Shown here piece by piece: positions 2,149-29,886 of a stretch of 64,000 nt of DNA; position 1 is the first letter of the stretch; every line of letters starts with the position of its first letter. This DNA comes from an uncultured Mycoplasmatota bacterium (GTDB lineage: Bacteria > Bacillota_I > Bacilli_A > RF39 > UBA660), in contig CAMJMP010000001.1 in assembly GCA_946407055.1 (NCBI GenBank), positions 6,847 to 70,846 on the forward strand. Direction: 5' to 3'. The translations under genes and the position numbers were made by a program. The notes under the pieces were generated by a model. That model was not told the DNA's origin, made no database searches, and was given only the letters and a program-made list of their open reading frames with translations.

Positions 2149-3245
2149 TTAGTAATTCCTTATTAACACAAATCACAAACGGTAGAGATGGTTCGAATTG
2201 GGGATATACTATGGGATTACCAAAACTTGAAAATATTGTAGATGGTGTATGTAAACAAACATATACACTATTATTTGCAGGTTCAGGTTGTGGTAAATCA
2301 AATCTCATGATGTATGCTTATATTTATAGACCATTAATGGAACATATTGACGATGATGATTTCTTTGTTTATTTATTTTCATTAGAGATGAAAGCAGAAA
2401 TCATTCTTGCTAAACTTCTTTGTATTTACATATTTGAAAAGTATCACATTGAAATTTCTTTTAAAGAATTACTTTCTAAAAAGAGAAATTATAGACTTCC
2501 AGACGAATATTATAAAATAGTTTTAGAGTGTATGCCTTGGTTGAAAAAGGTAGAATCTAAACTTAAAATATTCGATAAAGGAGCTAATGCTGATACAATT
2601 TATGCTAAACTTAAAGAAGATTTAGAAGAAAAGGGTAAATTTGAAGAGCAAGGAACTCGTAAAATATATTATCCGAACAATCCAAATTTAACTTATTTGG
2701 TTGTTGTTGATCATATGGGATTACTTCGTACTAAAGCAGGAAGAACTAAAAAGCAAGAAATTGATTTATTATCAAATTACTTTGTTTATCTTCGTAATAC
2801 TTGTGGAATTAGTCCGCTTGCTATTATGCAATCTAATAGAGATCAATCTTCATCTGCAAGAAGACAATTAGGTATGTATTTGCCTCAAATGTCTGATGTT
2901 AAGGAAACTAATGTTCCGTATGAGGATTCTGATATTACATTAGCAATTTATAATCCTAATGTTGATAAATTGAAAACTCATAATAAATACGATATAGTAC
3001 AATTTGGCGATACATTTAGAAGTATTGTATGTATTAAAAATAGATATGGTGAATCTAATGTAGAAGACAGTTGTGCTTTCTATGGCAAATCTAATATCTG
3101 GGTAGAATTACCTAAACCAGAAGAAATATTTGACGTAGAAAAATATAAAACTCCAGATTGGCTTTGGAAAAAGCAAGAAATGCCAGATAATAATAGTGTT
3201 TTAGATGAGAATACAAATAATAAATCATTTAAATTTAACTTATAA
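2145..3245 (+). CDS. DnaB-like replicative helicase (RecA-fold C-terminal domain)
   Basis: Walker A 'AGSGCGKS', Walker B-like 'VVVDHMGLL', a 'QSNR' motif (like the DnaB H3 'QLNR') and 'PQMSDVKETN' (like DnaB H4 'PMLSDLRESG'). At 366 aa it lacks the DnaB N-terminal domain. Confidence 0.6.
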   Translation: MISNSLLTQITNGRDGSNWGYTMGLPKLENIVDGVCKQTYTLLFAGSGCGKSNLMMYAYIYRPLMEHIDDDDFFVYLFSLEMKAEIILAKLLCIYIFEKYHIEISFKELLSKKRNYRLPDEYYKIVLECMPWLKKVESKLKIFDKGANADTIYAKLKEDLEEKGKFEEQGTRKIYYPNNPNLTYLVVVDHMGLLRTKAGRTKKQEIDLLSNYFVYLRNTCGISPLAIMQSNRDQSSSARRQLGMYLPQMSDVKETNVPYEDSDITLAIYNPNVDKLKTHNKYDIVQFGDTFRSIVCIKNRYGESNVEDSCAFYGKSNIWVELPKPEEIFDVEKYKTPDWLWKKQEMPDNNSVLDENTNNKSFKFNL

Positions 3246-3247
3246 AT

Positions 3248-3724
3248 ATGGCAGAATTAATTGCAGTTGTAGGAGAAAGTGGCTCTGGTAAGACCACTAG
3301 TATTAGAAATCTTAATCCAGAAGAAACTTTTATAATATCAACTACTGGAAAACGTCCTGGAACAAAAGGAGCAAAGAAGAAATATCCTACATTTAAAATC
3401 GATCCTACAACAAAGGAGATTTCAGGTAATTTCTTCACAGCATCTAATGTTGATTATATTGGAAAGATGCTTAAATTAATCGACTCTAAACTTCCACACA
3501 TAAAGACTGTTATTATTGATGATTATCAGTATGTAATGGGCTTTGAAGCTATGGATAGAGCTGGTGATAAAGGATATGATAAGTTTACTCAAATGGCTCA
3601 ACATGCTTATCAAGTTATTAAGGATTCTATGAATCTTCGTGATGATTTGTATGTTGTTATTCTTACTCATAGTGAGAATACAGGTGATAAACTTAATCCT
3701 TATTATAAGATTAAGACTCAAGGT
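3248..3724 (+). CDS. Sak4-like / AAA_24 family recombination ATPase, exon 1 (the ORF runs to a stop at 3728-3730; the proposed 5' splice site is after 3724)
   Basis: N-terminal Walker A 'VGESGSGKTT' and Walker B-like 'VIIDDYQY'. At 160 aa the ORF is about 70 aa short of a full AAA_24 protein and ends just before the intron-like region. Confidence 0.55.
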
Positions 3725-4925
3725 AAATAATATTTTGCCAGTATAACCCCTAATTCGGCGAAATCTGAAGCACAAATCGTGAGATTAATTGTATGACAAT
3801 GCCGAGCCAAGCAAAAATAGAATTCTAGACTATTTTGGGCGCGTGTATCGACTAGTAGCGGATCGGCTACGTAGAAATTGAAGTAATTAATCAATTTTGA
3901 AATGGGGATGTAAATTTTATATATTTTAATTTGAGGTGTAAATTTTTTATATTATATTTGTTGTAATAAAATTATAATAATTATGAATATAAAAATTTAT
4001 ACTTTAAGTTCTACAAGAAATCCTGATAATATCAGGTATGTAGGTAAATCTAAACAAAAATTAACTAGAAGACTTTCGCAACATTTATTAGATGCTAAAC
4101 GTCATAAAATGAATAAAGATTTTAAAAACCATAATTATAATTGGATAAATAAAGAATTAGAAGATGGTTTTAAAATAATTATTCTTGAATTAGATTCAAT
4201 GGAATTTTCAGAAAATGAAGATTGGAAATGGTTAGAACAATATTGGATTTCTCAATTAAGAATTTGGGGATTTAATTTAACTAATCTTACAGATGGTGGT
4301 GATGGAAATCAAAACCAAAAATTTTCTAAAGAATCTATTGAAAAAAGAGCTTCTAAATTAAGAGGTAAACATCGTGATGAAATAACAAAAGAAAAAATTT
4401 CTAAAGGACTTCAAGGAATAAAACGTTCTGAAGAAACAAAACAGAAATTAAAAAATTCAATACGAAGTTTACAAGGAAAAAAGATTAAACAATTTGATAA
4501 AAAAGGTAATTTTATAAAAATTTGGGATTGTGCAGTAGATGCAGCTAATGAATTAAATATAGATAGAGCTAATATTAGTCATTGTTGTAATCATAAACCA
4601 AATCATAAAACAGCAGGTGGATTTATTTGGAGATTTGAAAATGATAACTTTGAAATAAATACATATACTGATAATAGTATAGTTCAATTAGATTTAAATA
4701 ATAATTTAATTGAAATTTTTAAAACTGCTGTTTTGGCAAGTACTAAAACAGGAATTAGTACTTGTAGTATATCAAATTGTTGTAATCATAAAATAAATGA
4801 TGTAAAAGGGTTTAAATTTATTAAATATAAAGAATTTATGAATACATAGTCAGTTCCCGTAGAAATACGGTAGGCATAAATTTGATAGTAATTATATCAA
4901 ATAAAAAATTTATGTAATTTTAACG
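3725..4925 (+). mobile_element. Group I intron (about 1.2 kb) carrying a GIY-YIG homing endonuclease ORF; boundaries inferred
   Basis: Structured GC-richer core elements 'AATTCGGCGAAATCTG', 'GCCGAGCCAAGC' and 'TAGACTA...GGGCGCG'. The exon ends in U at 3724, the intron ends in G at 4925, and splicing restores the frame: ...KIKTQG|KMIDNVITLEG. Confidence 0.55.
3983..4849 (+). CDS. GIY-YIG homing endonuclease (intron-encoded)
   Basis: 'KIYTL...RYVGKS...R...E...N' GIY-YIG core, NUMOD3-like K/R-rich repeats, and two 'SxCCNHK...GF.W' C-terminal DNA-binding modules. Confidence 0.85.
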   Translation: MNIKIYTLSSTRNPDNIRYVGKSKQKLTRRLSQHLLDAKRHKMNKDFKNHNYNWINKELEDGFKIIILELDSMEFSENEDWKWLEQYWISQLRIWGFNLTNLTDGGDGNQNQKFSKESIEKRASKLRGKHRDEITKEKISKGLQGIKRSEETKQKLKNSIRSLQGKKIKQFDKKGNFIKIWDCAVDAANELNIDRANISHCCNHKPNHKTAGGFIWRFENDNFEINTYTDNSIVQLDLNNNLIEIFKTAVLASTKTGISTCSISNCCNHKINDVKGFKFIKYKEFMNT

Positions 4926-9032: not shown

Positions 9033-10090
9033 ATTTAAACGATATTAAAATAACCCCATTACTTGATACTCTTCGTCTGCAAAAAATTTCGGACGAAGAG
9101 TATTTTAGTGAGGTATATAAAGACTATATAAGTAATTCAAGGCTTGGCTTTATAGATCCTACAAATGGAGGTTCCCCACAAAAATTCTTGGATGGATTTG
9201 CATCTAATAGAATATTTAGTGACAGTTTAACTTTGGGAACAGTTGTTCATGAACAAATTCTTCAACCTGATTTATTTGATATTTGTCCAGATTTAGACAG
9301 ACCTACTGCGAAAGTAGGTTTTGTAGCAGACGAAATTGCTAAGATTACAAAATCGGATGATGTATCAAATTTTACAAAAGAAGAATTTTTACAAGCCTGT
9401 TTAACTGTGGATTATTATAAAGGTAATCCGACAAATGAAAAACGCAAAGAAATACTTCCTAAAATTAAGAATTATCTAATAAAGTTGAATCAATTCTTAC
9501 AATATGATGATAGAAAGGTATCTACTTTCTTGGATTCAAAAACGTTAGATAAAGCTAAAAATTGTATTTCTGCTTTACAAAATAATAAAAAAGTCCAAGA
9601 GTTACTTCATCCTAAAGGATTACTTGAAGATCCGATTTCTGAATGTGAGCAAGCTATTTTACTTGATGTTAGGGTAGAAGCTGAAGGACTTGAACCTTTT
9701 ACAGTAAGATTAAAATCTAAAATTGATAATTATACTATTGATAAAGAATCAAATCTAATTACTGTAAATGATGTTAAAACAATTGGAAGAACACTCGACA
9801 ATTGCGATGACCAAATTATGAAATATCATTACTATAGAGAAATGTATATGTATTGTTACTTACTTTCTTTATGTGCTAAGAAGTTTTATAATTTAGAAAA
9901 ATGTAGTGTTAAAAGTAATTTCTTATGGGTTTCAACTATTCCAAATTATTATACAAAAGTAACTCCTATGACAAGAGAGTTATTTAAAATTGGAGCAAAG
10001 GAATTCAAAGATTTACTAAGAAGAGCTGCTATTACTTTATTTTATAAAGATGCTATAAAGGCAGAAACTTTCATAAATAGTGGTTTATGA
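9029..10090 (+). CDS. PD-(D/E)xK exonuclease (RecB/YqaJ/Cas4-like nuclease motifs)
   Basis: 'GTVVHE', 'KIDNYTID', 'VNDVKT' (DxK) and 'QIMKY' (QxxxY), in the order seen in RecB-family nucleases. Confidence 0.45.
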   Translation: MNLNDIKITPLLDTLRLQKISDEEYFSEVYKDYISNSRLGFIDPTNGGSPQKFLDGFASNRIFSDSLTLGTVVHEQILQPDLFDICPDLDRPTAKVGFVADEIAKITKSDDVSNFTKEEFLQACLTVDYYKGNPTNEKRKEILPKIKNYLIKLNQFLQYDDRKVSTFLDSKTLDKAKNCISALQNNKKVQELLHPKGLLEDPISECEQAILLDVRVEAEGLEPFTVRLKSKIDNYTIDKESNLITVNDVKTIGRTLDNCDDQIMKYHYYREMYMYCYLLSLCAKKFYNLEKCSVKSNFLWVSTIPNYYTKVTPMTRELFKIGAKEFKDLLRRAAITLFYKDAIKAETFINSGL

Positions 10091-10443
10091 GCAGTGATTT
10101 AGAAATTGAGGATTGGTATTCGTATAAACAATTATTACAAATCTATCATAAATTCTTTTCATTAGGATTTTTAGATACTGATTTTAAAACCAAAATGGCT
10201 TTAATTTCATTAATTTGTTATACGACACATAAATTAAAATCCAAAAAACCAGATATTACGCATTACCAAATCATTCAAAAATTGGCTGTAGGTAAAGGTA
10301 TTCCAGACAGATATTTAAAGGCTCTGGCGGTCGTTTGCGATGAATTTGGTTATGGATGTACGGAATTTCCAACTTTTGATTTAAATGAAAAAGAAATCTT
10401 AAATACCATTAAAGATATTTTTGATAAATTTGTTCCATTTTAA
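10087..10443 (+). CDS. Hypothetical protein
   Basis: 118-aa ORF overlapping the upstream stop by 4 nt. Confidence 0.35.
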   Translation: MSSDLEIEDWYSYKQLLQIYHKFFSLGFLDTDFKTKMALISLICYTTHKLKSKKPDITHYQIIQKLAVGKGIPDRYLKALAVVCDEFGYGCTEFPTFDLNEKEILNTIKDIFDKFVPF

Positions 10444-10551
10444 CAAAAATTAATATTTAAAATATTTGGAAATTTCAGAAAGCAGATGTATATTTGTATC
10501 AGCTTTTCGGGAAAAGAAAAGTTGAAAAAATCAAAAATTTATATTAAAATA

Positions 10552-10583
10552 TTTGTTAGTATAAAAATTAATATATATATTTG
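10552..10583 (+). promoter_or_regulatory. Putative Bacteroidota-type promoter (-33 TTTG, 20-nt spacer, -7 TATATTTG)
   Basis: TTTG at 10552-10555 and TAnnTTTG at 10576-10583, 58 nt upstream of the highly expressed gene at 10641. Confidence 0.35.
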
Positions 10584-10640
10584 ATTTAGAATTTTTAGAT
10601 CATGTTAATAAGAATAAATGTTTAATAAAAAAGTAAAATT

Positions 10641-23582: not shown

Positions 23583-23774
23583 ATGTTATACGAAGTAAGT
23601 GTAGAAACAAGAGGTGAATGGGTAGAGAAAACTAGCTATTTAGTAGAAGCTGAAAGTGAAGAAGAAGCTTTGGATAAATACTATAACGGAGATGTAGATG
23701 AAACAGATAGCCACCGTGACGAGTGGGAAAATTGGACATCTGAACCTGACGTTGTAGCGTGTGAAAACGAATAA
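23583..23774 (+). CDS. Hypothetical small acidic protein
   Basis: 63-aa ORF. Confidence 0.35.
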   Translation: MLYEVSVETRGEWVEKTSYLVEAESEEEALDKYYNGDVDETDSHRDEWENWTSEPDVVACENE

Positions 23775-24697
23775 TGAAACCATTTAAAATAACTCAGTCT
23801 ATTACTAATAAAGATGATATATCTATTAAAAATTATTTTAGAGATATATCTAAAATACCTTTATTAACGAAAGAAGAAGAGTTAGAATTAGGTTATATAA
23901 TTCAAAATAACCTTAAGAAATTAAATAATTCAGAAGAATTATCTTTACAAGAAAAACGATTAACTGAAATAGAAATTAATAAAGCAGTTAATAAACTTGT
24001 AAGTGCTAATTTAAAATTTGTTATTTCTGTAGCAAAACAGTATTGTAATCAAGGTTTACCTTTCATTGATTTAGTAAATGAAGGTAATCTTGGTATGATA
24101 CAAGCAGCTAAAAAGTTCGATCCTAATAAAGGATATAAATTTATAAGTTATGCAGTATGGTGGATTAGACAATTCATAATGCAAGCGATAGCTTTAAAAA
24201 GTAGAACTATTAAAACACCTGTAAATCAATCTGCTTCTTTATCTAAACTTAATAACGCAGTTAATAAGTTCGAACAATTAAATGGAATTAAACCTTCTTA
24301 TGAAGAATTATCTAAATTAACAGGAATATCGGTTGAAAAAATAAACAAGATTTATAGTTATAATTCAAGCTGTATTTCTGTTGATACTCCATTTACTACA
24401 GAAGAAGACTCTGGTTGTTTACTTGATGTTGTTAGAAATCCAAATTGTGAAGATTCTGATAAAAATCTAATGGATTCTTCTTTAAAACAAGATATAAATA
24501 GAGTTTTAGATAAGTTATCTCCTCGCGAAAAAGTAATATTACAAATGTTTTTCGGAATAGATTGTGATGCAATGCAGTTAGATCAAATAGCTCCTAAGTT
24601 CGGAGTTACATCAGAGAGAATAAGACAGATTAAAGATAAAGCAATAGAACAGATTATTGTAAAATATAAATCTATCTTAAAAACATATATTATATGA
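23774..24697 (+). CDS. Sigma-70 family RNA polymerase sigma factor (RpoD-like, lacks region 1.1)
   Basis: Region 2 'IDLVNEGNLGMIQAAKKFDPNKGYKFISYAVWWIRQ' and region 4.2 'LDQIAPKFGVTSERIRQIKDKA'. Confidence 0.85.
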   Translation: MKPFKITQSITNKDDISIKNYFRDISKIPLLTKEEELELGYIIQNNLKKLNNSEELSLQEKRLTEIEINKAVNKLVSANLKFVISVAKQYCNQGLPFIDLVNEGNLGMIQAAKKFDPNKGYKFISYAVWWIRQFIMQAIALKSRTIKTPVNQSASLSKLNNAVNKFEQLNGIKPSYEELSKLTGISVEKINKIYSYNSSCISVDTPFTTEEDSGCLLDVVRNPNCEDSDKNLMDSSLKQDINRVLDKLSPREKVILQMFFGIDCDAMQLDQIAPKFGVTSERIRQIKDKAIEQIIVKYKSILKTYII

Positions 24698-24933
24698 GTG
24701 ATAATGTAAATCATCCTTCACATTATGCATCTGGTAGTATTGAATGTATTGATGCTATGATTGCTGCATATGGTTTAAAAGCAGTAATGGATTTTTGTAA
24801 ATGTAATGCTTTTAAATATCAATGGAGATTTGAAAATAAAAACGGAGAAGAAGATCTCAAGAAAGCTCAATGGTATCAAAATAAATATATTGAACTTAAA
24901 CATATTGAACTTAAAGAAACTGCGTTGAAATGA
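24694..24933 (+). CDS. Hypothetical small cysteine-containing protein
   Basis: 79-aa ORF. Confidence 0.35.
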   Translation: MSDNVNHPSHYASGSIECIDAMIAAYGLKAVMDFCKCNAFKYQWRFENKNGEEDLKKAQWYQNKYIELKHIELKETALK

Positions 24934-25897
24934 TATTAGAAGTATACGATTTAGAATGTTTAGCTAATGTTTTTACGTATACAGGTTATGCTCCAAAAAC
25001 TAAAGAATGGTTTCAATTTGTAATTTGTAATTGGCGAAATGACTATGATAAATTAATTGAGCATTTAAAAAGAGACAAACTTATTATGGTAGGATTTAAT
25101 AACGAGAGTTATGATTATCCATTATTACATCATGTGATTAAACATTATGACGAATACAAAAAATTAAGTGGAAATATTGTTGCTCAAAAATTATATAATA
25201 AATCTCAAGAAATAATAAATCAACAATTCAGTGCAATTGCTGATAAGAATAAATTTATTCCTCAAATTGATTTGTTTAGAATATGGCATTATAATAATGC
25301 TGCACGTTCTACCTCATTGAAGGATCTTGAGATTTGTATGAGAATGGAAAATGTGGAAGAAATGCCTATACACCATACTCATTGGTGTAAACCAGGTGAC
25401 GAAATATGTATTTTGGATTACAATAAAAACGATGTTTGGGCAACTTATTTATTTTTAAATGTAACTTTAGGTCGAACTGATTATTCAATCTATAAAGGAA
25501 AGAATAAAATTGAACTTAGAGAGAAAATTAATAAAAAATTCAATGTTAATGTTATAAACATGGGTGACGTTCCTATGGGAGAGGAATTAATGCTTACTTT
25601 GTATTCAAGAAAAGTAGGTATTCCAAAGTACGTTATCAAACAACGTGGAGGAACTCACCGTTCTACAATAAACTTAAAAGATTGTATTCCATATTGGTGT
25701 AAAATTGAATCTCCAGAGTTTAAAAACTTTTTAAATCAAATTCAAAATAAAACAATTAGAGGAGTTAAAGGAGAATTTCAATATTCTGTAATATTCCATA
25801 ATTATAAATTTGATTTTGGTCTTGGAGGAAGTCATGGATGTTGTGAACCTAAAGTATGGGAATCCAATAAAGATTGGGTAATTGTAGACTATGATGT
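24930..25897 (+). CDS. Family B DNA polymerase, exon 1 (N-terminal and 3'-5' exonuclease domain; 3' boundary approximate)
   Basis: Exo I 'YDLECL', Exo II 'FNNESYDYPLL' and Exo III 'YNKNDVWATY'. The ORF stops at 25919 with no polymerase domain. Confidence 0.6.
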
Positions 25898-26251
25898 TGG
25901 ATTAAAGTGGTCCAACTAAAATGGAAATAAATTGCGGGGAGTCCCTTAGAGACTTAATCACGGCACTAAATAGTAATATATTAGGTAGCAGTAAAGTTAA
26001 CGCTTTACGGATCGTAAAAGCATTAAGTATTGGGTAATCACATCAAAACGCAGCCAAGCTTCCAATTTTTGGAAGAAGGTTCAACGACTATCCTTTTTAG
26101 GAGTAGGGTACAACTGATAACTGTATCCGAAAAATTTCCAAAATTATTTGGATATAACCTTAATTTTAAAAGGTAAATTCGCAAATAATTTGTGATATAG
26201 TCTGAACTAATAGGGAAAACCTATTGACTTATATACAATCATTTATCTTAG
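25898..26251 (+). mobile_element. ORF-less group I intron in the DNA polymerase gene (boundaries approximate)
   Basis: 'AAATTGCGGGGAGTCCC' (compare Tetrahymena 'AAAUUGCGGGAAAGGGGUC'), 'ACGCAGCCAAGC', 'GTTCAACGACTATCC', and 'GATATAGTCTGAAC' followed by a P9-like hairpin. No ORF is present. Confidence 0.6.
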
Positions 26252-27224
26252 TATATATAACACAATTACACTATATCCTAGTATAAGTAAATCTCTTAAA
26301 TTATATCCTGAACATCTTGGTCCTGTATTCAATGAACAATATATAGGGTTTATTGATACTAGATTAAATGAAAAACATAAAGCAAAAGAATTAAGGGATA
26401 ATGTTCTTATTGAAGGATATAAACTTATTCTTAATGGAACATACGGTAAAAGTAAGGAAGAAACTTCTTTCTTATACGATCCATTGTATACATTTAAAAC
26501 AACAGTAGCAGGTCAATTATTTATTTGTATGTGGGCTGAACGTTGGGTTAAAGTTTGTCCACGATTAAAGTTCATACAAACAAATACTGATGGTCAAACT
26601 ATTTATATTCCTCGTGAAGATATAGATAAGATACGTGCTGTAAACGAACAACTTACAGCAGAAACAGGTCTTACTATTGAAGAAGTTGTCTATAAAAAGA
26701 TGATAGTGCGTGATGTGAATAATTACATCGGCGTTTATGAGGATAATGAAAAAGACCACGAACACATTAAGCTAAAAGGTGATTATGAAGTTGATAAAGA
26801 ATTCCATAAAGACCCTTCTATGCGTATTGTGCCTTTTGCTGTTAAAAACTATTTTGTATATGGAATTCCTGTAGAAGAAACCATTAAAAATCATAAAAAT
26901 ATATTTGATTTCTGTCTAAGATTAAAAACTAATGCAAAAAGTACTCCTTATTTTAGACATCTTAACGAAAATTCTGAAATCGTAAATGATAAACTTGATA
27001 GAACAACTCGTTATTATGTTTCTAATAGAGGTGGAAACTTGTATAAAGATTTTGGAGATAGACAAACTGGTGTAAACGTAGGATTTTCAGTTACAATTTT
27101 TAATCAATATGTTGAAAAACCTTTCGAGGAATACGACATTGATTATAGATTTTATATTGTTGAAGCTAAAAAATTAATAACTTCAATAGAAACAAAACAA
27201 TTAACTTTATTCGATTTATTTTAA
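26252..27224 (+). CDS. Family B DNA polymerase, exon 2 (palm and thumb; 5' boundary approximate)
   Basis: The frame is open from 26214 with no start codon until a TTG at 26484. It encodes motif A-like 'TLYPSI', motif B 'KLILNGTYGK' and motif C-like 'TNTDGQ'. Confidence 0.55.
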
Positions 27225-27916: not shown

Positions 27917-28810
27917 ATGAAAACATTAAAAGATTATGCTGATTTTCTTTATAAAAATGGATATAAAGAGAATTTTGCACCATATACATTTTGTGATGAT
28001 GAATTAGAGATAGTAGAATTTATAAAAAATAATTATCATATAAATTTATATGTTATAAAAACAGAAGAATTTTCTGATTATTTAGCTTCTCTTCCATTAG
28101 GAACGGAATATGAACTTAAATATGAAAATTATATTGTAAAATCAGCATTTATTGAATCTCCAATTTGTAATATACCTGACTTTCTAACTGGAGAGGTTGA
28201 AGGAATACAATTGGATTTAAAATCAAATGATTATAACAAACATACACTAGATTTGTTTGAATTATGTATTGGTTTTCAGAAAACAAATTTGCTTGAACAT
28301 GAATTATTTATAATGTCACGTAGACAAGAACATTTAATTTGGGCAAAAGATAATTTGATTCCTGTTCTTGAAAAGCATGACTATTATATTACTTTCGATT
28401 CATATTTCGATGTTAAAAAAGAAAGATGTTCTTCTAATATGAGCATAGAATTTAAACATCCTAATAATGCAGAAGTTGTTTTTGAAATTGATTGTTTAAC
28501 AGGTGAACCTATCATTTGGTCTAATATTAATTCAGGTACTTTTACTGATTTAGCTAATAAGATTTATGGCAAGAATAAAGAAGATGTATATAATATCTTA
28601 TTAGAAGAAGTGTGGAAGAAAGATGACCTTAAATTTGGTTACATATATAATAATGATCCACATGAAACAATAGATACTTGGAGAGAAGTTTATTCTTTAA
28701 TGGATTGTTTACATTATAAAGAAATACGTGATATAAACTTCGATATTATTCCTAAACGATATAATCATTTAGTTGAAGAATATAATAAATTATTAAATAA
28801 AGAAAAATGA
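27917..28810 (+). CDS. Hypothetical protein
   Basis: 297-aa ORF overlapping thyX by 4 nt. Confidence 0.4.
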   Translation: MKTLKDYADFLYKNGYKENFAPYTFCDDELEIVEFIKNNYHINLYVIKTEEFSDYLASLPLGTEYELKYENYIVKSAFIESPICNIPDFLTGEVEGIQLDLKSNDYNKHTLDLFELCIGFQKTNLLEHELFIMSRRQEHLIWAKDNLIPVLEKHDYYITFDSYFDVKKERCSSNMSIEFKHPNNAEVVFEIDCLTGEPIIWSNINSGTFTDLANKIYGKNKEDVYNILLEEVWKKDDLKFGYIYNNDPHETIDTWREVYSLMDCLHYKEIRDINFDIIPKRYNHLVEEYNKLLNKEK

Positions 28811-29886
28811 AATTAGTAAAACAGTCTTACGAAATATTAGAACAAGAAATTCCTGTTCATAAGCTGGATGATTATTCAGGTTATCATTTCAGAGAACAAT
28901 ATCTTGAAAATATGTATAAGCATATTGAAAGATGTGGAAGAACTTGTTATAAATCTGAGAATAAAATAACACCAGATAGTTCTAAAAAGTTTGTAGATGG
29001 ACTTATTAAGTCTAAGCATTTAAGTGTTCTTGAACATGGAACTATTTATTTGTATATTCCAGTAAATCCTTACGATTCCGATTTAGTTTATCATGTTAGA
29101 AACGAATATGTAGAAAATCCTTATTCTAAAGCTATATATGTTGGACTTGATGATGATGAACCACCTTATCGTGATATTTTAGGAAATCCTGCACACGGTG
29201 ATATGCAATATGTTATTACTACTAATTTTAGAGTATTAGTAGAAAATGATTGGCTTGATGATTTGAAATATCTTTGTGAGCCAACTAAATATCATGAGTT
29301 AAGACATACTGTACTTCTTCATTCTTGTATCCATACTTATAAGGATTTAACAAGACATAGAAAAATGAGTTTCAGTATCGAAAGCACACGTTATTGTAAC
29401 TATTCTAAAACTGATAAGTTTGGAGAAATGAAGTTTGTTCTTCCACCTTGGATTAAAGAAAAACCAACTTGTAATTGGGAACATCCTCAAAAGTTACATC
29501 AACCTCTTAGAAAAGAAGGAGAACCTCTAAATGATTTTGGAAGAGTTTGGTATGAACTTTGTATGGAAGATGTAGAAAGAAATTGGGATACAGACGAATT
29601 TAAGTTAATAACAAAATGGAATTCTGCTGATTTTTATTGTCATGGGTTAAAATGTGCGGAAGATAGTTATAATCTTCTTATAGAATTAGGTTGGCAACCT
29701 CAACAAGCAGCAGAAGTTCTTCCACAATCTACAGCTGCTGATGTAATTATGTCAGGATTTGATGAAGATTGGAAATTTGTATTTGATCTTAGATCTGATA
29801 CTGCTTTAACAGGAAAGCCTCATCCTCTTGTAGAAGAAATTATGACTCCACTTCGTGATGAATTTAAAGCAAATAATTGGATATGA
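28807..29886 (+). CDS. thyX: Flavin-dependent thymidylate synthase
   Basis: ThyX signature 'RHRKMSFSIESTRY' (RHR-x7-S). Confidence 0.75.
   Translation: MKLVKQSYEILEQEIPVHKLDDYSGYHFREQYLENMYKHIERCGRTCYKSENKITPDSSKKFVDGLIKSKHLSVLEHGTIYLYIPVNPYDSDLVYHVRNEYVENPYSKAIYVGLDDDEPPYRDILGNPAHGDMQYVITTNFRVLVENDWLDDLKYLCEPTKYHELRHTVLLHSCIHTYKDLTRHRKMSFSIESTRYCNYSKTDKFGEMKFVLPPWIKEKPTCNWEHPQKLHQPLRKEGEPLNDFGRVWYELCMEDVERNWDTDEFKLITKWNSADFYCHGLKCAEDSYNLLIELGWQPQQAAEVLPQSTAADVIMSGFDEDWKFVFDLRSDTALTGKPHPLVEEIMTPLRDEFKANNWI

Follow-up and report, generated by a model that had tools for sequence, protein, structure and literature searches.

The closest described systems include the IA2 introns of the T-even phages (td, nrdB, and nrdD/sunY) and of Staphylococcus phage Twort. 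These introns reside in genes of nucleotide or DNA metabolism at conserved catalytic codons, contain an early in-frame stop codon, and loop out their endonuclease ORF from a peripheral hairpin. The intron described here, from a window of 64,000 nucleotides (the whole stretch of DNA that was analyzed), is likewise phage-borne and has P7.1 and P7.2 helices between P7 and the 3' strand of P3 (P3'). It also has in common with them the catalytic codon of a metabolism gene, the early stop after the 5' splice site, and an endonuclease ORF site in a peripheral hairpin. It differs in having no P2, a large P5 extension, a 9-nt bulge in P4, and an extra P9.1 hairpin, as well as in ending with an A and in being too diverged for the Rfam threshold.

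The terminal G of group I introns is near-universal and is treated as mechanistically required for exon ligation. Been and Perrotta reportedly found in 1991 that in Tetrahymena a mismatch between the binding site and the terminal nucleotide blocks exon ligation; Price and Cech (1988) and Michel et al. (1989) are related references. In Tetrahymena guanosine-site mutants (attributed to Michel et al. in 1989 and Been and Perrotta in 1991), a terminal A is said to work only once the binding pair is A-U. The window intron resembles the Tetrahymena ribozyme in having a P7 with a bulged nucleotide followed by the predicted guanosine-binding G-C pair, but unlike in these mutants, the G-C pair of its family does not vary between members that end in A and those that end in G.

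Phage DNA polymerase introns are known in SPO1, Bastille, and other Bastillevirinae, where they occur with or without a homing-endonuclease gene, occupy several insertion sites per gene family, and number two or three in some genes (PMC11878797). The present case is similar in that a self-splicing-type intron is found in a replicative polymerase with multiple insertion sites, and at least five intron hot spots are seen in this polymerase gene family. The SPO1 and Bastillevirinae host genes belong to PHROG 17 (phrog_17, DNA polymerase) of Bacillus phages and their splicing is experimentally demonstrated (PMC11878797), whereas the window gene belongs to PHROG 1252 and encodes a divergent family-B enzyme, and splicing of its intron is predicted from sequence. 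One natural precedent for a terminal A was found, the hexacoral mitochondrial ND5-717 intron, which is accepted as a group I intron despite this nucleotide and is spliced in vivo; its authors suggest that the terminal A suppresses 3'-splice-site hydrolysis and circularization (PMC6545197, PMC8146996). ND5-717 is organellar, obligatory, and inherited vertically, and its P8 contains genes, whereas the window intron appears to be mobile and phage-borne and to have once carried a homing endonuclease.

A polymerase gene split within motif A

The following features define the interrupted gene.

24930-25902, + strand: polB exon 1, with the exonuclease domain and motif A as far as D-V-G and the U of a Ser codon; colinear with the uninterrupted homologues P0001 and P0002
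24948-24956, 25098-25115, and 25419-25433, + strand: Exo I (DLE), Exo II (NNESYD), and Exo III (YNKND) motifs of exon 1
25903-26268, + strand: intron assigned to group I, subgroup IA, 366 nt, without an intact ORF (from intron-less DNA, a single splice solution, and covariation)
25917-25919, + strand: UAA ending the unspliced exon-1 frame, five codons into the intron
26269-27224, + strand: polB exon 2, whose first two bases, CA, complete the Ser codon ahead of LYPSI; stop codon at 27222-27224
26421-26450 and 26580-26594, + strand: motif B (KLILNGTYGK) and motif C (TNTDG) of exon 2

Unspliced, the exonuclease-domain ORF spans 24930..25919 (329 aa), and the downstream polymerase frame is open from 26214 with its first start codon, a TTG, at 26484, past motif B. 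Both halves match PHROG 1252 'DNA polymerase' over adjoining profile segments, 56-357 (E=9e-53) and 359-654 (E=4e-78). The motifs expected of family B, Exo I, II, and III and then A (DxxSLYPS), B (KxxxNxxYG), and C (xTDx), occur in this order as DLE, NNESYD, YNKND, DVGSLYPSI, KLILNGTYGK, and TNTDG, and the key residues are invariant across the 41 homologues compared. Pfam, NCBIfam, and PDB sequence/profile searches gave no meaningful match to curated family-B models, leaving PHROG 1252 as the only match, and the family assignment needed a fold search. An AlphaFold (AF2) model of a 98%-identical uninterrupted homologue (mean pLDDT 87.8) matches 9N, KOD, Tgo, and pol alpha (E=7e-15 to 1e-12, probability 1.0). 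Judged by this modeled fold, the polymerase is a divergent lineage of family B. Its exons are under purifying selection (dN/dS 0.04-0.22, including a pair of intron-bearing alleles). The genomes that host this gene are those of uncultured AT-rich phages, and contigs of relatives reach about 160-185 kb. No second polymerase gene was identified in the window, where the remaining ORFs are without systematic annotation.

Intron-less DNA fixes the boundaries of the insert. At motif A, P0001 (98% identical) and P0002 (84%), both uninterrupted, have the sequence VIVDYDVGSLYPSI, and their DNA at this site is GGT/GGA TCG CTA, as compared with GGA T, 366 nt, and CA CTA in the window. The junction is consequently ...GAU GUU GGA U / intron / CA CUA UAU..., which splits the Ser codon UCA into U and CA, and the predicted ligation joins GAUGUUGGAU to CACUAUAUCC. 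Exhaustive enumeration yields one splice solution restoring DxD[VI]xSLYPS per sequence in 10/10 same-site introns, all ten of which have U at position -1. The spliced product predicted for the window is a 642-aa polymerase with motif A (D-V-G-S-L-Y-P-S-I) intact. Among close relatives the same site is either occupied or empty, with identical flanking codons, and in same-site relatives the unspliced frame also terminates 2-19 codons into the intron; 39 truncated motif-A ORFs were counted. The only ORFs within the insert are two spurious 48-aa frames. Bases 26244-55 and 26274-85 form a 12-nt near repeat that might have served as a pseudo-exon or an alternative splice signal, but relatives do not conserve the copy in the exon, and the repeat is probably due to chance.

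An earlier note on this DNA had described the exonuclease ORF ending at 25919 and the frame open from 26214 with TLYPSI, KLILNGTYGK, TNTDG, and a first start at TTG 26484, all of which holds. Its interpretation, a family-B polymerase gene split by a group I intron that carries no ORF, is supported by the fold match, the covariation, and the lack of a real ORF. The gap that it put at roughly 350 nt does correspond to an insert, but the actual size is 366 nt (25903-26268). The D-Y-I-T-L-Y-P-S-I junction that it favored (exon 1 to 25892, exon 2 from 26265) must be abandoned, since it would leave the protein two residues shorter than every homologue; its 5' and 3' boundaries are misplaced by 10 nt and 4 nt, respectively. 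It had also remarked that its best-fitting solution lacks a terminal intron G, and here the enumeration agrees, with no G-ending splice solution and A26268 as the last intron base.

Secondary structure of the intron

The RNA architecture comprises the following elements.

25896-25916, + strand: P1 hairpin, exon GUUGGAU (25896-25902) with internal guide GUCCAAC (25910-25916)
25906-25909, + strand: P10 5' strand AGUG, paired with the first four exon-2 bases CACU (26269-26272)
25922-25928, + strand: P3 5' strand UGGAAAU, paired with AUUUCCA (26134-26140); P3/P7 pseudoknot
25933-26052, + strand: P4-P5 domain, with P4, P5, P5a, P5b, and P5c
25933-38 with 26038-39 and 26049-52, + strand: P4, with a 9-nt A-rich bulge (26040-48)
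25943-45/26032-34 and 25953-58/26022-27, + strand: P5 and P5a (4/6 P5a pairs compensatory)
25966-72/25977-84 and 25991-96/26003-08, + strand: P5b with a GUAA loop, and P5c
26053-26080, + strand: P6 (26053-55/26078-80) and P6a (26059-64/26070-75)
26084-26090, + strand: P7 5' strand, paired with 26198-26203; C26085 bulged
26091-26128, + strand: P7.1 (26091-94/26099-102) and P7.2 (26106-11/26123-28), between P7 and P3'
26141-26191, + strand: P8 (26141-50/26182-91) and its inner hairpin P8a (26157-61/26170-74)
26208-26226, + strand: P9 hairpin UAAUAGG / CCUAUUG, with three compensatory pairs
26230-26257, + strand: P9.1 hairpin (26230-36/26251-57), 100% paired, 5/7 pairs compensatory, conserved UCUUAG in the loop
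26266-26268, + strand: intron 3' end; U26266 and U26267 pair with A26205 and A26206 (P9.0), and A26268 is the omega position

This structure has 102 pairs, with 94.8% of cells paired in six same-site sequences, which are also the only six from which it was derived. Changes on both sides make 34/102 pairs compensatory, where shuffles gave 12.1 +/- 2.4 such pairs and slid controls gave 5-8, and P1, P10, P3, P7, P7.1, P7.2, P9, P9.0, and P9.1 each include such changes. The MFE z-score of the intron is -3.0. The seven pairs of P1 are 100% paired across the six sequences, two of them compensatory (the L036 counterpart is UUUCGU/GCGAAAC), and the U25902.G25910 wobble at the 5' splice site is an invariant U.G in 6/6. 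P10 changes to AGCG/CGCU in L024, and P9.0 is AA/UU in the window versus AU/AU in L026. P3 is 97.5% paired with two compensatory pairs (e.g., CGAAAAU/AUUUUCG in L023), and P7 is 100% paired, also with two. A first assignment of P3 (AAAAUGGA with UCCUUUUU) was discarded; its UCCU...AGGA pairing is the local covarying hairpin P7.1, and the true partner is 26134-26140.

Compensatory pairs are also frequent in P7.1 (3/4) and P7.2 (4/6), whose location between P7 and P3' we take to mark subgroup IA in the sense of Michel and Westhof (1990). The predicted guanosine-binding pair is G26086-C26202, next to the bulged C26085, and this G-C pair is invariant in all members. The P7 layout corresponds to C262-G312/A263/G264-C311 of Tetrahymena. 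The insert thus combines P1 with its U.G, a P3-P8 core with the P3/P7 pseudoknot and P4-P6, the P7 G-C pair, P10, and P9.0.

The four group I core strings quoted in the earlier note do occur in the insert, at 25929-25945, 26048-26059, 26079-26093, and 26194-26207. The combined pattern of three of these strings has one match in the window versus 0.00 expected (100 shuffles), and within the 64 kb all four core motif classes are found together at the intron only. Rfam Intron_gpI gives no match at the gathering threshold in the window and none at E<=0.5 in the whole-window scan; RF00028 scores 21.3 bits (E=0.005) in a local 801-nt scan only, relative to a gathering score of 50. The alignment ends at G26226, after P9, and misplaces P4/P5 and the 3' end. 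The low score reflects misalignment of the P7.1/P7.2 and P5 insertions, a matter of model sensitivity and not contrary evidence.

Probable mobility of the intron

The intron retains the end of an endonuclease gene.

26160-26195, + strand: GIY-YIG homing-endonuclease remnant LILKGKFANNL, the last 11 codons and stop; the UGA overlaps J8/7

The same intron, with 98% core identity, is present in L004, where the P8a loop contains an intact 242-aa GIY-YIG gene ending ...ELILKGKFANNL before its stop codon. This loop is the location of the endonuclease gene in relatives. Intact GIY-YIG genes are found in L004, L022, L023, L035, and L037 and not in the window intron, while L024 retains 14 endonuclease codons with different deletion end points. 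These comparisons indicate that the intron once had a GIY-YIG homing-endonuclease gene in its P8a loop and became ORF-less when this gene was deleted.

The intron-less L001 reads GGTTCGCTATAC around the insertion target. It has 69 differences from the window, 6 of which are within -14..+7 of the junction, and the window is identical to L004 for 33 nt upstream of the junction even though the exon dS is 0.75. Homing is indicated by this short co-conversion tract and by the presence of a 98%-identical ribozyme in a phage that has otherwise diverged. Apart from L004, IMG/VR pattern scans for further copies returned only a small number of relatives located in other genes and false positives in coding sequence; an endonuclease-based locus search gave no additional copies, and a single metagenome scan recovered only the L004 contig again. 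We consider it very likely that 25903-26268 is a mobile subgroup-IA group I intron that homed into motif A of a phage family-B polymerase gene and later lost its GIY-YIG gene by deletion.

The terminal adenosine and alternative explanations

The terminal nucleotide is A in 7/10 same-site introns and G in 3/10, and it is G at other sites of the intron family, such that this family, unlike ND5-717, is polymorphic. No feature that tracks A versus G was found in P7, J6/7, J8/7, J7/9, or P10 strength, and the P7 G-C pair is the same in A-ending and G-ending members. The missing terminal G turns out to be a property of the lineage.

If a terminal G-to-A change had instead crippled the intron by blocking exon ligation, then this polB allele would be a pseudogene or have trace expression only. 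The omega position is indeed A while the G-binding pair G26086-C26202 is canonical, a mismatch that reportedly blocks the second step in Tetrahymena. We regard this possibility as improbable, however, given that the seven A-ending introns are spread over different samples and over diverged phages, whose polymerase N-terminal halves share 55-74% identity with that of the window, that the ribozyme stems of A-ending relatives stay paired via compensatory changes, and that the exons are under purifying selection between A-ending alleles (dN/dS 0.15-0.22). The A-ending intron also appears to have spread horizontally, with its 98%-identical core in a phage with an exon dS of 0.75, and no other polymerase gene that could substitute was identified among the window ORFs, the rest of which are without systematic annotation. 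A natural A-ending intron that is spliced in vivo is also known (PMC8146996, PMC6545197).

Two further readings are very improbable. A 3' splice site at G26226, directly after P9, would join U25902 to A26227 (GGAU/ACUUAUAUAC); the Rfam alignment ends there, and the join is in frame, within a reading frame that opens at 26214, and would retain the 42 nt of 26227-26268. Such a junction would add 14 residues (YLYTIIYLSIYNTI, with T replacing S) to motif A. However, this spacing is not frame-conserved (L024 has 44 nt here), the bases 26230-26257 form an RNA hairpin in which 5/7 pairs are compensatory, and P10 and P9.0 indicate 26268/26269. Uninterrupted homologues have no insertion at this point and an invariant Ser, and the related introns L017 and L029 are predicted to splice after the homologous tail and not after P9. 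G26251 was also tried as a terminal G and, like G26226, is ruled out by frame, hairpin, and homologues. It is similarly hard to credit a naturally split polymerase whose halves are made separately and then associate with no RNA splicing, even though the exon 1 frame ends in a stop codon and gene callers list the halves as separate ORFs in public data. The break would fall inside motif A, between D-V-G and S-L-Y-P-S, and exon 2 has no start codon before TTG 26484, beyond motif B. Moreover, what separates the halves is a ribozyme fold that is conserved and covaries, with its P1 and P10 helices involving both exon ends, and close relatives have this site either filled or empty between identical codons.

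With a mobile group I intron as the preferred reading, the pre-mRNA would fold into a ribozyme in which P1 (GUUGGAU with GUCCAAC) presents U25902, and free guanosine at the G26086-C26202 pair of P7 would cut after this nucleotide. P10 (AGUG/CACU) and P9.0 would align the 3' splice site, and exon 1 would be joined to C26269. Ligation would rebuild the Ser codon UCA and give the 642-aa polymerase with D-V-G-S-L-Y-P-S-I intact, whereas unspliced transcripts would stop at UAA 25917-25919. Because omega is A26268 and not G, exon ligation would have to proceed with adenosine although the G-binding site is otherwise canonical, probably with help from P9.0 and P10. We infer self-splicing, and this account of how the second step copes with A, from the sequence comparisons. 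On balance, we lean toward the view that a mobile phage intron lineage ligates exons with a terminal A while keeping the canonical guanosine-binding G-C pair, and that the terminal purine varies between A and G within one family at one site.

Implications

Except for its terminal A, this intron in a phage polymerase gene is ordinary in kind, and the case is mainly one of annotation. Gene callers fragment the polymerase, the intron stays below the Rfam threshold, and taking the end of the Rfam alignment at G26226 as the splice site would lead to a wrong junction that is in frame by accident. The intron hot spots, of which there are at least five, make this polymerase family a good data set on homing-endonuclease turnover. 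The specialist interest is in the terminal A, which occurs in a mobile, evolutionarily successful family that has mostly A and some G with its G-binding site unchanged. If splicing is efficient, this would be a small natural system for the role of the terminal G in binding, positioning, and side reactions such as 3'-splice-site hydrolysis and circularization. If the tolerance of adenosine is true, then a compact natural ribozyme of 366 nt would allow direct dissection of terminal-G dependence, and the second splicing step in this scaffold would proceed without the need for a specific terminal-G contact.

An interrupted family-B DNA polymerase gene

The polymerase gene (polB) of the window is read in two open parts:

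24930 to 25919, + strand: ORF, exon-1 half, 329 aa
26214 to the stop codon at 27222-27224, + strand: downstream open frame, whose first start codon is TTG at 26484

ORF calls bear out these limits of the exonuclease ORF and the downstream frame, as read in the earlier note. Each half matches PHROG 1252 "DNA polymerase", the first at profile positions 56-357 (E=9e-53) and the second at the adjoining positions 359-654 (E=4e-78). A Pfam search matched neither half, and sequence-level searches of Pfam, NCBIfam and PDB gave no match for the polymerase. The spliced product has 642 aa and differs at 9 positions from P0001, an uninterrupted homologue. An AlphaFold2 model of P0001 (41-sequence alignment; mean pLDDT 87.8, pTM 0.82) matches the archaeal and eukaryotic family-B polymerases 9N, KOD, Tgo and pol alpha (E=7e-15 to 1e-12, probability 1.0). 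Exo I-III and motifs A-C are found in the window polymerase, with key residues invariant in the 41-sequence alignment. Among annotated phage proteins, the closest reach about 34% identity and bear the labels DNA polymerase, polymerase II or family B. The window polymerase is a divergent family-B lineage, and it is under purifying selection (dN/dS of 0.04, 0.15, 0.15 and 0.22 against the related-phage loci L001, L003, L004 and L024).

Directly upstream of polB (23774-24933), the window encodes a sigma-70-type factor (307 aa) and a DUF3310 protein; downstream (28807-29886) there is a thyX-like gene (359 aa). L001 and L003 have this gene order too. In L024 (185.8-kb contig), a Cpn60/GroEL-family gene (526 aa, 2440-4020) is directly upstream and overlaps the polB start. 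The window has a GC content of 28.6%, and no tRNA genes were found within its 64 kb.

The four group I core strings that the earlier note quoted from the gap are all present (25929-45, 26048-59, 26079-93 and 26194-207). The combined pattern of three occurs once versus 0.00 expected (100 shuffles), and all four motif classes co-occur at this locus alone in 64 kb. An 801-nt local scan finds Rfam Intron_gpI at 21.3 bits (E=0.005), below the threshold of 50, and Rfam scans of the window at gathering score and by whole-window E-value gave no match.

Splice junctions and ribozyme structure

A homologue search with the provisional splice product returned 3706 homologues. Across the gap, the uninterrupted P0001 (98% identity) and P0002 (84%), like every other uninterrupted homologue, read ...D-x-D-[VI]-x-S-L-Y-P-S... 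Intron-less DNA reads GAT GTA GGT TCG CTA TAC in L001 and GAT GTC GGA TCG CTA TAT in L003, versus GAT GTT GGA T[taaagtgg...cacaatta]CA CTA TAT in the window. Exon 1 therefore ends at U25902 and exon 2 starts at C26269, and the interrupted Ser codon is U + CA.

Ten independent introns at this motif-A position were searched exhaustively for splice pairs around the site. A single solution restores DxD[VI]xSLYPS in each of the ten, and the base at -1 is U in every case. For the window, the exhaustive enumeration gives no G-ending solution even when one residue more or less is allowed, which confirms the earlier remark that a terminal intron G is lacking; the last base is A26268. The junction D-Y-I-T-L-Y proposed there is rejected, as it removes two residues.

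A 3' splice site at G26226, the last base of the Rfam alignment, preserves the reading frame in the window by mere coincidence; the segment after P9 is 42 nt here versus 44 nt in L024. It would add 14 residues to motif A and disregards the covarying P9.1 hairpin. Automatic annotation that joins U25902 to this end could yield an insertion of 14 residues that looks plausible and is wrong.

Same-site introns were collected from other phage contigs (L004/L019, L020, L021, L022-L026, L035-L037; L020 and L021 partial), and six, with the endonuclease ORF taken out, were aligned structurally (alignment A1).

Predicted elements of the window intron (all + strand)
25903-26268: group I intron, 366 nt, from comparison with L001/L003
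25896-902 / 25910-16: P1, with U25902.G25910
25906-09 / 26269-72: P10
25922-28 / 26134-40: P3
within 25933-26052: P4, P5, P5a, P5b (GUAA loop), P5c
26053-80: P6 and P6a
26086-90 / 26198-202, plus A26084-U26203: P7, C26085 bulged
26091-102: P7.1
26106-128: P7.2
26141-91: P8 and P8a
26205-06 / 26266-67: P9.0
26208-26: P9
26230-57: P9.1

In this structure, derived from the same six sequences, 94.8% of alignment cells are paired and 34 of 102 pairs show both-sided changes, versus 12.1 +/- 2.4 in column shuffles (0/500 reach 34) and 5-8 in a control with the partners displaced by 1-3 columns. The intron has an MFE of -80.4 kcal/mol (z = -3.0). P7.1 and P7.2 put it in subgroup IA, as with T-even phage and Twort introns.

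A 9-nt A-rich bulge (ACAUCAAAA, 26040-26048) breaks the P4 3' strand in five of the six aligned introns (L026 lacks it) and may form a tertiary contact. A 12-nt near repeat links the P9.1 loop and stem (TATCTTAGTATA, 26244-26255) with exon 2 (TATCCTAGTATA, 26274-26285). UCUUAG of the P9.1 loop is invariant in all six introns; the resemblance is probably due to chance, because the exon-2 copy varies among relatives.

A terminal A that varies with G

P1/P10 prediction, suggested in the earlier note, finds both pairings. In P10, the intron strand and the start of exon 2 change together (AGUG/CACU vs AGCG/CGCU), and P9.0 covaries as AA/UU vs AU/AU; both predicted pairings place A26268 at the omega position, the last intron nucleotide. 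At the motif-A site, the terminal base is A in seven introns and G in three, one of which (L025) is a different intron.

Intron 3' tails (slash, splice site)
UAACA[C/U]AAUUA/: window, L004, L024, L035, L036; motif-A site
UAACAUAAAUUA/: L023; motif-A site
UAACAUUAUUA/: L022; motif-A site
...CAUAAUG/: L026; motif-A site
...AAAUUUG/: L037; motif-A site
AACAUAAUUG/, AACAUUAUUG/, AACAUAAUG/, UAACACAAUG/: L017, L018, L016, L029 in order; same family, other genes or sites

A-ending and G-ending introns do not differ in the predicted G-binding pair or in its surroundings (GGUUCAACGA ... UCUGA). As a method control, the second L004 intron (motif C) resolves to the canonical ...AAUAUUG/GAUGG with a 5-bp P10.

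That the polymerase is a naturally split enzyme is very unlikely: the interruption cuts through motif A, a usable start is lacking in exon 2, and between the halves lies a covarying ribozyme whose pairings include the ends of both exons. The serious rival, on account of the terminal A, is a crippled intron. It is contradicted by A-ending copies that persist and spread with conserved structure, and by the selection on their exons. We strongly infer that the window intron splices. The hexacoral mitochondrial ND5-717 intron also has a terminal A and undergoes splicing in vivo, and its authors suggest that this base suppresses 3'-splice-site hydrolysis and circularisation (PMC6545197, PMC8146996). 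It is the sole natural precedent that a limited literature search found, and others may exist.

Endonuclease loss, signs of homing and related introns

The L004 locus carries the same intron with a ribozyme core 98% identical, and its P8a loop holds a 242-aa GIY-YIG endonuclease gene whose stop codon overlaps J8/7. The window intron keeps the last 11 codons and stop of this gene (LILKGKFANNL*, 26160-26195). The L024 intron is also ORF-less but keeps 14 codons, and its loss was independent, because the deletion end points differ. The G-ending L026 intron (775 nt) has the gene in pieces (a 121-aa frame and shorter ones), which is intermediate between the intact gene and the clean deletion in the window.

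Although the exons of the window and L004 have diverged to dS 0.75, their ribozymes share 98% identity, and not one base differs over the 33 nt that precede the intron. From the intron-less near-twin L001 there are 69 differences, of which 6 are at -14..+7 around the junction. Each of these two patterns is the mark that homing with a short co-conversion tract leaves.

The polymerase family (relatives P0121-P0239) is heavily invaded. An exon-1 search gives 119 truncated ORFs with five recurrent end points (FDFGxGG 10, motif A 39, motif B LxxNG 14, motif C xNT 29, RDV 18), which implies five or more hot spots for introns or insertions. In L004 (minus strand, about 2613-3810), the same polB is interrupted a second time by a group I intron, inside motif C (QTNT/DG); this intron has its own GIY-YIG frame (292 aa), ends in the canonical G and forms P1 AACACU/GGUGUU and a 5-bp P10. 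A close relative of the window intron in L029 (about 9148-10590), with P4, P7 and the tail UAACACAAUG in common, interrupts the polB exonuclease domain (ARHSS/LKDLE) and ends in G. The P7'/P9 sequence GATATAGTCTGAACTAATAGG is common to introns of L016, L017 (3314-4092, minus strand) and L018. The L016 intron interrupts thyX; those of L017 and L018 interrupt motif B of a family-A polymerase and carry an HNH endonuclease gene. The L017 polymerase is apparently broken at further places too.

Compared with GenBank phages, the P4-P6 region (25930-26092) shares about 70% identity with stretches that lack annotation in nine Lak megaphages (Prevotella), crAss-like phage cr108_1 and a faecal "Bacteriophage sp." contig, and a 43-nt piece of it matches Listeria phage LPJP1. 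These stretches are probably unannotated introns.

The group I intron in the window is real, and its kind is well known: it is phage-borne, has an endonuclease history and sits in a replication gene. Its boundaries are precisely defined, and its uncommon feature is the last base, A here and either A or G across the intron family.
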